A stretch of DNA of 63,009 nucleotides, filler included, from Globobulimina sp. (GCA_003354225.1; 20 parts of 20 records of this genome joined end to end with filler, not necessarily neighbours in it); one strand, 5' to 3'; positions 3,275-6,216 are shown, counted from the whole stretch's first letter. Translations and numbers: made by a program. The notes: a model not told the origin generated them from the sequence alone.

Positions 3275-5086
3275 ATGTCGGCACAAGCACTATGTTCAAA
3301 AATGAAGAATGAATGTAAAAAGTTGCTTGATGTAATATATATCGATCACAATCCAGATCCACTTTCAGGCGCCACAGCAACCACATTGTGCAAGAACGCC
3401 ATTTCAGAGTTATCCGACGCAGCAACCACCAATGAAATGTTAAAGACCTCGCGAGGTAATGGTAACGGAATGCAGACCATCCATTCCGGCATGGACGCAT
3501 TTGGTGAGATTCCCACTGTATCAGATGATGGCACTCAGATTGATATCGTGCAGCAAATCGATGCAGGCAACGGGTTCGCACCGGGAATGCCCAGTACTTG
3601 GATAAAACGAGCCTTACCCGATCATCTTCGCCGCGGCAAACCAGTGCGATCGAGTGATATCTTCGACGATGCGCATATGGCATTTGGTAGTGGGCAGGAA
3701 ATATTATGCGAGCCAATGCACGTCAACACCAAACCAGACTGGACTGCGGATGATAAGAATTTTCTCACTGGACAGCAGATTGATGCCTATTATGCGGGAC
3801 CGCGCGTATGGACCACGAAAGGCTATTTTTCTGGCTCTATGATAACCCCTTTGTGCGATCCACGGCAAATTACCATCATTATACAAAGTGGAACGGGCGT
3901 AATTCAGTCCACCTTTGGTTTATTACCGTATGTCGCTGGCGATTTGATTCAAATCCCGCCGCATACTCCGTTTTGTTTTTATGTTTGCAAAAAGCAAACG
4001 GTTCGCTGCATTACTTATTATGCCAAAGAAGATTTAGTTTTTCCTACGTCGCAGTTAAACGGCGCCGATTTAAACCAAGCGCCTTTCTCGCCGAGTATTG
4101 TGGTGCAATGTCAGTATGCTTTTGACGAATCGAAGCAATATCAGCAACGCGCAGAATATGTTCGTTTACAACAATCGAATGGCAATTATAATTTATATTA
4201 TTTCCCGCAATGCAAAAGTGCCTTCAATTGGAGCAAATGGGTACATAATGGGCCGGTTGTGCATAAAGTGAATTTAATTACAAATTATGAACGAATTGGG
4301 ACCAGCAAAGGGCATAAAGATCCAAATTTGTGGTTAATATTAGGGCATACATGCGACAAATCATTTGGCATCGCGTATATTAGCGGGAAATCCTTGGTTG
4401 CAGTGGGTGAGGCGGAAGACAATAAAATTACGTATCCGCCCGCTTTCTGGCATATCAATGGTGTGCCTGAAAAGGGCGAACTCGTCGTCTTTGGCGATCG
4501 CGAAGATACCGGCTATGATGCGAGGGAGGGTTATGGTGACGGGGACTGTTTGTTGCATGTTGCGGGCGTTGGACATGGTGCGGACAGAGGTGTTTTCAAA
4601 CATTTTATAAATAAAGCCATTATTAAACATATATTAGAAAATAAAAACAGGGATACAATTATTAAACAATTGATTAATGGCAATAAATATGGAAGATTTA
4701 TGGGGTTAAATGCAGAGAAGAAAGTGGATCGAATTAATGGATTTATTAAAAGAATGTATGCGTCTGATTTTGCTGATGAATATAACGATGCCCAAAATGT
4801 GGAATTTAATGTGTCGTCTGGCCTTAATACGGCAATTGATGTTATTTTAAATGAGGATATTGCGTTGAATGCAGGTCGCGATTTCCAAGTATTAGGAATG
4901 CCGCTCGGTATCGGATATTTAATGGTGGAGTGTAGAGATGTTCCCGTTATTCCTCCATGTCGAAAGAATTCAAGTTTTAATAAAATTACGCCAGTCTCTT
5001 ATGGTTTAGATCTTTTTCCATTGGTTGACGATGCGAATAAATACTTGGAGAAAATTAATAAAAAATATATTAGATCCTCTCTTTAA
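3275..5086 (+). CDS. Highly divergent homogentisate 1,2-dioxygenase-like protein (603 aa, no intron evident)
   Basis: Colinear HGD motifs: GTGVIQSTFGLLPYVAGDLIQIP, HKDPNLWLIL (cf. HADPSIFTVL), PPAFWHIN...E (cf. PPYYHRN..SE), GYDAREG (cf. HYEAKQG), LHVAGVGHGAD (cf. LHSTMTPHGPD), YLMVE (cf. AFMFE). Adjacent to HPD. Confidence 0.78.
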   Translation: MSAQALCSKMKNECKKLLDVIYIDHNPDPLSGATATTLCKNAISELSDAATTNEMLKTSRGNGNGMQTIHSGMDAFGEIPTVSDDGTQIDIVQQIDAGNGFAPGMPSTWIKRALPDHLRRGKPVRSSDIFDDAHMAFGSGQEILCEPMHVNTKPDWTADDKNFLTGQQIDAYYAGPRVWTTKGYFSGSMITPLCDPRQITIIIQSGTGVIQSTFGLLPYVAGDLIQIPPHTPFCFYVCKKQTVRCITYYAKEDLVFPTSQLNGADLNQAPFSPSIVVQCQYAFDESKQYQQRAEYVRLQQSNGNYNLYYFPQCKSAFNWSKWVHNGPVVHKVNLITNYERIGTSKGHKDPNLWLILGHTCDKSFGIAYISGKSLVAVGEAEDNKITYPPAFWHINGVPEKGELVVFGDREDTGYDAREGYGDGDCLLHVAGVGHGADRGVFKHFINKAIIKHILENKNRDTIIKQLINGNKYGRFMGLNAEKKVDRINGFIKRMYASDFADEYNDAQNVEFNVSSGLNTAIDVILNEDIALNAGRDFQVLGMPLGIGYLMVECRDVPVIPPCRKNSSFNKITPVSYGLDLFPLVDDANKYLEKINKKYIRSSL

Positions 5087-5633
5087 ATAATAATACTTTA
5101 TTTGCTTACTATAAATACTGCTTTTTATTTTATACATTACTATAATAAATACTTTAGAACATGAACGCGCCTTATCCTCGCACACACGGAAGATGGTGAT
5201 CACTCCCTCTTTAGTTCAAAATGTTAAAATTAATTATGTTCCAAAAAAAGAATGTCGTTTCCTTGCACATTCTTAAAAAAAAAAGTGTTTTTGTACGTCC
5301 ACAAACGGTCTAAATATCAGATTTACAGATTTGGAAATAGTCAGAATTTGAAAAAGCGTGTTATTGAACTAGTAGTCTGTTTGAAACACTTTTCTTTTGA
5401 AATTGTATACATTATCCTTGCACTGCATGTAAATCCCCATATGATTTCAAATTGTTATCTTCAAAACTTTAAGAAATCATTTTTTTGGATAAAATAAAAT
5501 TAATACCATAATACATATATTTAGCAGAAAGCCTAAACAGCTTCACAGTATATTGTCATTATTTATATACTCACACAAAAAAAATAAAAAAAAATTTAGT
5601 AATGAACGTTATGAACCACAGAAACGAAAGTCA

Positions 5634-6216
5634 TTATAATTTTGATCGTTTTTTTTGAAATAAATTGCCTCTTTTTTCTTGAGCGAGTTCAATCGAAGTA
5701 AACAAAGCTTTAAAATTACCCGCACCAAACCCGCCATGATTCTGTCTCTGAATAATCTCATAAAACAACGTAGGTCGATCCTCCGCATTTTCAGTAAATA
5801 TCTGCAATAAATATCCTTTATCATCAAAATCCACCAAAATCTGTAATTTCTGAATCACATTCAAATCCTCCGCAATCCTCACCGGACTATTTTTTAATCG
5901 AATTCGTAAATCATCATAATACTCGTCAGGAATCGTCAAAAATTTAATTCCTCTCTGCTTTAATCGTGTTACTGATTTAATAATATGCCGCGTGGTCAAC
6001 GCAATATGCTGTACGCCGGCACCCCCATTATACTCCACATATTCTTGAATCTGTGATTTGCCGCGGCGGGTTCCTTGGGCTGGCTCATTGATTGGTAATT
6101 TAACCACGCGGTCAGAGTCACACATTACGATACTACGCAAGGCGCTGTATTCGGTATGGATTTGAGTGTCATCCACACTCCAAGATTGATGAAAATCCAA
6201 GCATTTACTATACCAA
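5634..6216 (-). CDS. HPD: 4-hydroxyphenylpyruvate dioxygenase, C-terminal half (5' truncated by contig end)
   Basis: [78 protein letters not shown]. Confidence 0.97.

Follow-up and report, generated by a model that had tools for sequence, protein, structure and literature searches.

Two converging genes on a foraminiferal contig

The DNA considered here, a stretch of 63,009 nucleotides from the foraminifer Globobulimina sp. (GCA_003354225.1; hereafter the window), consists of 20 unrelated contigs, each of ~3.05 kb, joined with spacers. On contig G000:C3850, two frames converge: a 603-amino-acid (aa) open reading frame (ORF) on the plus strand, which we assign by profile and predicted fold to a divergent subfamily of homogentisate 1,2-dioxygenase (HGD), and a 4-hydroxyphenylpyruvate dioxygenase (HPD) frame on the minus strand, with 547 bp between their stop codons (Table 1). 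This tail-to-tail arrangement on one contig, reported in a preliminary description made from the DNA sequence alone, was borne out on recomputation.

The HPD frame is readily identified (TIGR01263, E 1.4e-79; human HPD, E 1e-72), and H70 and E153 of the fragment align in register with what we take to be His266 and Glu349 of the human enzyme. The preliminary description was right about the identity of this gene but not about its completeness, since only the 3′ half lies inside the window. The upstream remainder comes from contig C35810, which overlaps this fragment by 191 bases and agrees with it at 189; at one of the two differences (position 6184), all four public runs read the other base. 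The source assembly (G000) comprises 70 Mb in 48,370 contigs, all of them short (0.7–3.5 kb). It is genomic: the genes for fumarylacetoacetate hydrolase (FAH), maleylacetoacetate isomerase (MAAI) and phenylalanine hydroxylase (PAH) are split into exon-like pieces.

Table 1. Features of the HGD–HPD locus, in window coordinates
Feature	Position	Strand	Remarks
Whole contig G000:C3850	3159..6216		3,058 bp; neighbouring contigs in window unrelated
Predicted divergent HGD gene	3275..5086	+	603 aa, one open frame; single match in assembly
Active-site stretch	4313..4585	+	H347, P350, H393, N395, E399, Y414, H428, H434, D437; A390, F391
Predicted five-helix insertion, ~95 aa	4595..4879	+	Residues ~441–535, after the GHG-D motif; in all full-length relatives
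HGD C-terminal SSL (IRSSL), PTS1-like	5075..5083	+	Family end S-x-L, SKL among them
Convergent spacer	5087..5633		547 bp, 27% GC; between HGD and HPD stops
Dispersed repeat 1	5172..5250		At least 35 further copies, the closest 94% identical; preceded by TACTTTAGAA at 5150
Dispersed repeat 2	5377..5456		Dozens of other copies, up to 99% identical
HPD gene, 3′ half	5634..6215	-	193 aa; truncated by contig end
HPD C-terminal SKL (KKRSKL), canonical PTS1	5637..5645	-	Short tail past end of best-matching solved HPD chains

The ORF and its relatives form a divergent HGD subfamily

HGD is usually well conserved. Searched as a single sequence, the ORF finds no useful match in Pfam, NCBIfam or PDB sequences, the best Pfam hit being Cupin_2 at E 0.12 with nothing else. 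Protein searches retrieved relatives: one gave 5 out of 7,872 candidates, another 20 proteins from a set of 1.84 billion representatives; those labelled by species (Elphidium margaritaceum, Nonionella stella and Bolivina argentea) are 55–63% identical to the ORF. A 6-sequence profile of these relatives missed HGD in the PDB; a 13-sequence profile placed human HGD (1EY2) first among PDB matches, at E 1.5e-7, and bacterial HGD (3ZDS) second, at E 3e-5, with the motifs in register, and a 19-sequence profile repeated these HGD matches. Weak profile matches to choline-binding protein A (E 0.09–0.29) were put down to helical composition and rejected. Two distant relatives, P0022 and P0024 (23–28% identity), bridge the family to conventional HGD, and P0022 has both the insertion region and a C-terminal SKL. 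Five of the six members of the first alignment (A1) weakly match HgmA_C, relatives P0011 and P0022 pass the cut-off of this model, and TIGR01015 matches relative P0006 at E 7e-4.

The predicted structure points the same way. An AlphaFold model of the ORF, which like that of the insertion is a monomer, has a mean pLDDT of 68 and matches HGD in Foldseek at E 4e-13. Alignments to HGD structures gave Z 22.9–24.1 over 346–366 residues spanning 12–599, with a root-mean-square deviation of 3.7–4.0 and 14–15% sequence identity, while the best non-HGD fold reached only Z 11.7 and gentisate and salicylate dioxygenases Z 10–11. In the highest-scoring of these alignments (Z 24.1), 361 residues superpose with a deviation of 3.8. 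The nearest ESM Atlas clusters are all HgmA (score 0.85), which we treat as a lead only. Given the profile E-values for 1EY2 and 3ZDS and the fold search (E 4e-13, Z 24), the resemblance to HGD is not due to chance. The HGD call of the preliminary description was therefore right, as the profile finds the human and Pseudomonas enzymes and the predicted fold is that of HGD; the structure comparison that it had proposed separates HGD (Z 24) from the next fold (11.7).

Bacterial contamination was considered and rejected, as the relatives sit in foraminiferal transcriptome sets and the GC content of the ORF, overall and at third codon positions, is near that of the neighbouring HPD and NUBPL genes. 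No relative loci were found in JGI metagenome contigs, queried with alignment A1 and P0024, or in prokaryotic genomes. Judged by profile and modelled fold, the ORF family is a small, highly divergent HGD subfamily whose species-labelled members are foraminifers.

Most active-site residues are kept beside a predicted helical insertion

Roles of HGD residues were taken from the accessible text of a preprint (bioRxiv 10.64898/2026.06.02.729205), which gives His335, Glu341 and His371 as the iron ligands of human HGD, describes His292 and His365, and places Pro295, Pro332 and Tyr333 in the pocket; chain numbers in the 1EY2 alignment equal the human numbers plus 26. In the ORF, the iron triad corresponds to H393 (His335), E399 (Glu341) and H434 (His371), and the substrate-contacting histidines to H347 (His292) and H428 (His365). 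P350 (Pro295), Y414 (Tyr350) and N395 (N337) are also kept. The motifs picked out in the preliminary description thus coincide with HGD active-site residues: HKDP contains H347, WH contains H393, PEK contains E399 and GHG supplies H428 with H434. H393, N395 and E399 are invariant in all 13 aligned sequences, H347 and H434 are present in 12 of the 12 sequences that cover them, and H428 and Y414 are kept in 11 of 12, the exception in both cases being P0006. This relative has intact iron ligands and carries Phe, Lys and Tyr at the positions of H365, Y350 and D374; it may be a paralogue with another substrate.

The insertion that follows these residues, modelled alone, forms five helices (pLDDT 86). 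It is the least conserved region of the family, with 24–55% identity against 45–70% in the active-site stretch. Compared with 48,161 structure chains it reached at best Z 5.2, Foldseek returned nothing at E 0.001 and the Atlas gave no usable match, although a missing structural match does not make the predicted insertion a new fold.

Compared with known HGD enzymes (EC 1.13.11.5; human 1EY2; bacterial HmgA 4AQ2, 4AQ6 and 3ZDS), the ORF product shares the predicted two-domain cupin fold across residues 12–599, the His/Glu/His iron triad, the equivalents of His292, His365, Pro295 and Tyr350, and the H-x-D-P, H-x-N-x3-E and H-x5-H-G-x-D spacing. It differs in its low identity (14–15%), its length (603 versus 433–445 aa), a longer N-terminal region, the ~95-aa helical insertion, the Ala in place of Pro332 and the C-terminal S-x-L.

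Predicted C-terminal signals on the pathway enzymes

The C-termini of the pathway enzymes, a feature that the preliminary description missed, are more striking than the HPD–HGD pair, and we regard PTS1-marked (type 1 peroxisomal targeting signal), predicted peroxisomal catabolism of tyrosine and histidine in foraminifera as the stronger lead. The tripeptide SKL is the canonical PTS1. It ends HPD, both MAAI genes and three of the four tyrosine aminotransferase (TAT) genes with visible ends. The HGD family itself ends in S-x-L in 16 of the 17 sequences that reach the last helix (SSL 5, SAL 4, STL 3, SKL 3, SLL 1), the exception being P0007; this count includes the query, draws P0012 and P0028 from one species, and excludes fragments and three cluster duplicates. 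The S-x-L end is maintained across relatives that are 27–63% identical, with SKL in three, and a basic residue usually precedes it.

For comparison, we collected ORFs from 454,551 bases of 59 unselected contigs. Of the 287 frames of at least 150 aa, none has SKL, S-x-L, GKL or any further strict PTS1 at its C-terminus; among frames of at least 100 aa, S-x-L occurs in 5/521 and SKL in 0/521. The presence of SKL on 6 of 8 pathway genes, against 0/287 in the background, has P 3e-11. Among relatives of FAH, eight of the nine closest (69–88% identical, Rosalina and Ammonia being among the labels) end in LLGKL and the ninth stops early; the next 110 matches include no GKL, S-x-L or strict PTS1 terminus and a single HKL. 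A 983-aa nematode match was set aside from this count.

Enzymes picked as controls also carry SKL, namely three kynureninases (C7060, C5176 and C3498; L091–L093), urocanase (C660, L095) and histidase (C12252, L107). Because PAH (C1299), two tryptophan 2,3-dioxygenases (TDOs; C12702 and C1516) and 3-hydroxyanthranilate dioxygenase (3-HAO; C30822) lack a PTS1, the pattern is selective. A class I aminotransferase (C5403, L055) was also seen to end in SKL.

The spacer and neighbouring contigs

The two repeats of the spacer belong to related families, which have TGTATACATTATCC(T/C) in common and are often flanked by TACTTTAGAA and TTCTAAAGTA, ends that resemble those of miniature inverted-repeat transposable elements. 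Many copies of repeat 2, for which 40 of 165 candidates for the spacer were scored, run on into a short palindrome. The single Rfam match in the spacer, at E 0.38, is below the gathering threshold and was rejected. The Globobulimina assembly shows one gene of this HGD family; low-depth contigs from the runs X3 and X5 over window positions 4136–6216 are ~81–84% identical to both HGD and HPD and come from a second species or a paralogue.

Elsewhere in the window, positions 3–1703 (plus strand) encode an ATPase of the NUBPL/Mrp type that carries a GBBH-like_N domain at its C-terminus, and a single 410-aa frame at 6971–8203 (plus strand) fuses mitochondrial-carrier-like repeats to a C-terminal RING finger.

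Discussion

We consider it probable that the ORF is this foraminifer's HGD and that tyrosine is broken down inside peroxisomes, a reading that builds on fold, residues, C-terminal tripeptides and adjacency as observed in this assembly. To judge from its residues and modelled fold, the ORF product is very probably active as an HGD. It would be an Fe(II) cupin enzyme in which H393, E399 and H434 hold the iron and homogentisate is converted to maleylacetoacetate, and it would have drifted to ~14% identity from known HGDs and acquired the helical insertion. Import driven by PTS1 is quite likely for the enzymes of the pathway: TAT, HPD, HGD, MAAI and FAH would all enter peroxisomes by means of their C-termini. 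Tyrosine would then be taken into the peroxisome, where TAT would yield 4-hydroxyphenylpyruvate and HPD, using O2, would form homogentisate, the substrate of the HGD encoded by its neighbour. With Fe(II) and a further O2, HGD would open the ring, and MAAI and FAH would carry the product to fumarate and acetoacetate, while PAH and one TAT would remain outside the organelle. A plausible benefit is that reactive intermediates (homogentisate, maleylacetoacetate and fumarylacetoacetate) would be kept confined. A role of the locus in controlling homogentisate or pyomelanin levels, as once proposed for it, finds no support, since HGD seems undamaged and the assembly contains the enzymes that act after it.

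The ORF falls below every curated cut-off of PF20510 (HgmA_N), PF04209 (HgmA_C) and TIGR01015, and the search of the ORF itself against the Pfam HgmA models that had been suggested as a check gave no match; because these family models fall short, its membership in a divergent HGD subfamily rests on fold and residues. Several points weigh against a peroxisomal HGD. The position of Pro332 is occupied by Ala (A390) in the ORF and in 11/13 aligned sequences (Pro in 2/13), and that of Tyr333 by Phe (F391), where 11/13 have Tyr. Confidence in the model is lowest in the active-site loops, where pLDDT is <50 at 339–350, 388–392 and 410–416. As to the targeting signals, the C-terminus of FAH in this genome lies beyond the contig end, the background ORFs include internal exons and so dilute the true PTS1 rate, and SSL and GKL are non-canonical, although they can work as signals in other organisms. 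Finally, monofunctional catalase, isocitrate lyase, malate synthase and acyl-CoA oxidase all went undetected in family searches of the assembly. Three models likewise failed to find a conventional HGD in the assembly, while TAT, PAH, MAAI and FAH were found by the same search method; since usual peroxisomal families also failed to turn up, little weight attaches to this negative. Many proteins of the assembly carry SKL, yet those four families were not seen, perhaps because the searches are insensitive or the assembly has gaps. A supply of O2 to the dioxygenases from catalase has no support here, as no catalase was found and KatG-like frames have no PTS1 at the first stop.

Is the proximity of HPD and HGD meaningful? 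That the two genes are physically linked we hold with good confidence; that selection maintains the linkage is a more tentative proposal, and the odds come close to even that HPD and HGD, in a genome dense with genes, came to lie side by side by mere coincidence. The 547 bp between them are ordinary here (median 464 bp for convergent neighbour pairs, n=23), tail-to-tail genes have no common promoter, and scanning many windows will turn up rare chance pairs. Moreover, FAH (C38627 and C37947), MAAI (C10211 and C2736) and TAT (C858, C2693 and C28821) are on other contigs, and some of these pathway genes adjoin other genes. Against chance, the density of long ORFs (180 in 396,500 bases) leads us to estimate that the enzyme of the previous step would be the downstream neighbour of a given gene about once in 10,000 cases, and in Aspergillus these genes do form a cluster (PMC3203155). 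We therefore describe the locus as a two-gene pair and give modest weight to a cluster. The gene cluster proposed in the preliminary description finds partial support: HPD and HGD are adjacent, TAT is on other contigs, and the spacer is of ordinary length with repeats; FAH and MAAI, which the description suggested looking for beside the pair, proved to be on other contigs too. As all contigs are short (0.7–3.5 kb), looser linkage of FAH, MAAI and TAT is possible.

A second alternative, which we find unlikely, is that the pathway is split: import would be confined to the SKL enzymes, and HGD (SSL) and FAH (GKL) would be cytosolic or have a dual location. SSL, STL, SAL and GKL are weaker signals than SKL, S-x-L turns up in the background set (5/521 ORFs of at least 100 aa), and one TAT paralogue, PAH, two TDOs and 3-HAO carry no signal. 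However, S-x-L is held across relatives 27–63% identical, is SKL in three of them and mostly follows a basic residue, and SKL marks enzymes both preceding and following HGD.

It is quite improbable that the ORF is an HGD-derived ring-cleaving dioxygenase for another substrate, such as a substituted homogentisate or a gentisate-like compound, with the true HGD absent from the fragmented assembly. The 14–15% identity to HGD, the pocket changes at P332 and Y333 and the large insertion beside the active site would suit such an enzyme, P0006 has the iron ligands without the H365 and Y350 equivalents, and family searches of the assembly can miss genes. Yet the ORF keeps the equivalents of H292, H365, P295 and Y350, adjoins HPD and is far closer in fold to HGD than to gentisate and salicylate dioxygenases (Z 24 versus 10–11), and the search that found TAT, PAH, MAAI and FAH found no conventional HGD, all of which favors assignment of the ORF as HGD.

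The adjacency itself could be an assembly chimera created through a spacer repeat, and here the claim of linkage fares well in part: the genes share a contig, and contigs from public runs cover the region partially (X3 spans 3446–5152 in one piece; X1, which may be the source sample, covers 5206–5395 without differences and also 5427–5986), but among the pieces listed from four public runs none crosses a whole spacer repeat. Although copies of repeat 2 are up to 99% identical, such a misjoin is very unlikely, because none of 29 fetched copies matches the spacer exactly over more than 64 bp, within an ordinary read span, and in copy L013 the similarity to this one extends to either flank (5364–5476, 87%); a random join would also hardly select the next pathway enzyme.

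How do these genes compare with known systems? The tyrosine-degradation cluster of Aspergillus fumigatus comprises six genes (hppD, hmgX, hmgA, fahA, maiA and hmgR) including a regulator, as given in the accessible text of PMC3203155. As in that fungus, HPD and HGD genes are linked here in a eukaryote; in contrast to it, only two genes are linked, no regulator is seen on the short contig, and FAH, MAAI and TAT are elsewhere. For Histoplasma capsulatum, the peroxisomal proteome contains Fah1, a predicted FAH with a PTS1 (PMC13343957). The likeness is a PTS1 on FAH; that case concerns one enzyme, and "homogentis" does not occur in the main text, whereas here predicted signals fall on the steps from TAT to FAH and on histidase, urocanase and kynureninase. 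Foraminiferal peroxisomes have been described in a preprint that names Pex5, Pex7 and Pex19, reports Pex5 transcripts in two foraminifers, and lists beta-oxidation, the glyoxylate cycle, gluconeogenesis and the pentose phosphate pathway in these organelles (10.1101/2022.07.20.500910). Both of its foraminifers encode this HGD family. Its main text contains neither "tyrosine" nor "homogentis" nor "hydroxyphenylpyruvate", and its supplementary dataset may list such genes. In the text available, PMC11736642 and PMC13561418 do not mention tyrosine, and a firefly study takes up the breakdown of tyrosine and peroxisomes but shows no targeting signals for the enzymes concerned (PMC7522259). A full-text literature search, covering few subscription journals, found no foraminiferal HGD and no peroxisomal homogentisate pathway.

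A broader scenario, which we put forward tentatively and somewhat doubtfully, is that foraminifera shifted the catabolism of ring-bearing amino acids (TAT to FAH, histidase with urocanase, and kynureninase) to peroxisomes, where an undescribed HGD subfamily serves. The insertion would adapt its assembly or its docking to HPD, and the HPD–HGD pair would be kept group-wide.

An HGD that standard domain models miss fills an apparent annotation gap in the tyrosine catabolism of foraminifera. The ORF also illustrates how little HGD sequence the iron site may need, which could be useful for structure-function work on alkaptonuria. The homogentisate pathway of animals is cytosolic; if the foraminiferal signals work, the same pathway would run whole in peroxisomes. 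If this is true, the peroxisomes that abound, for unexplained reasons, in low-oxygen foraminifers would gain amino-acid catabolism with two O2-consuming dioxygenases.

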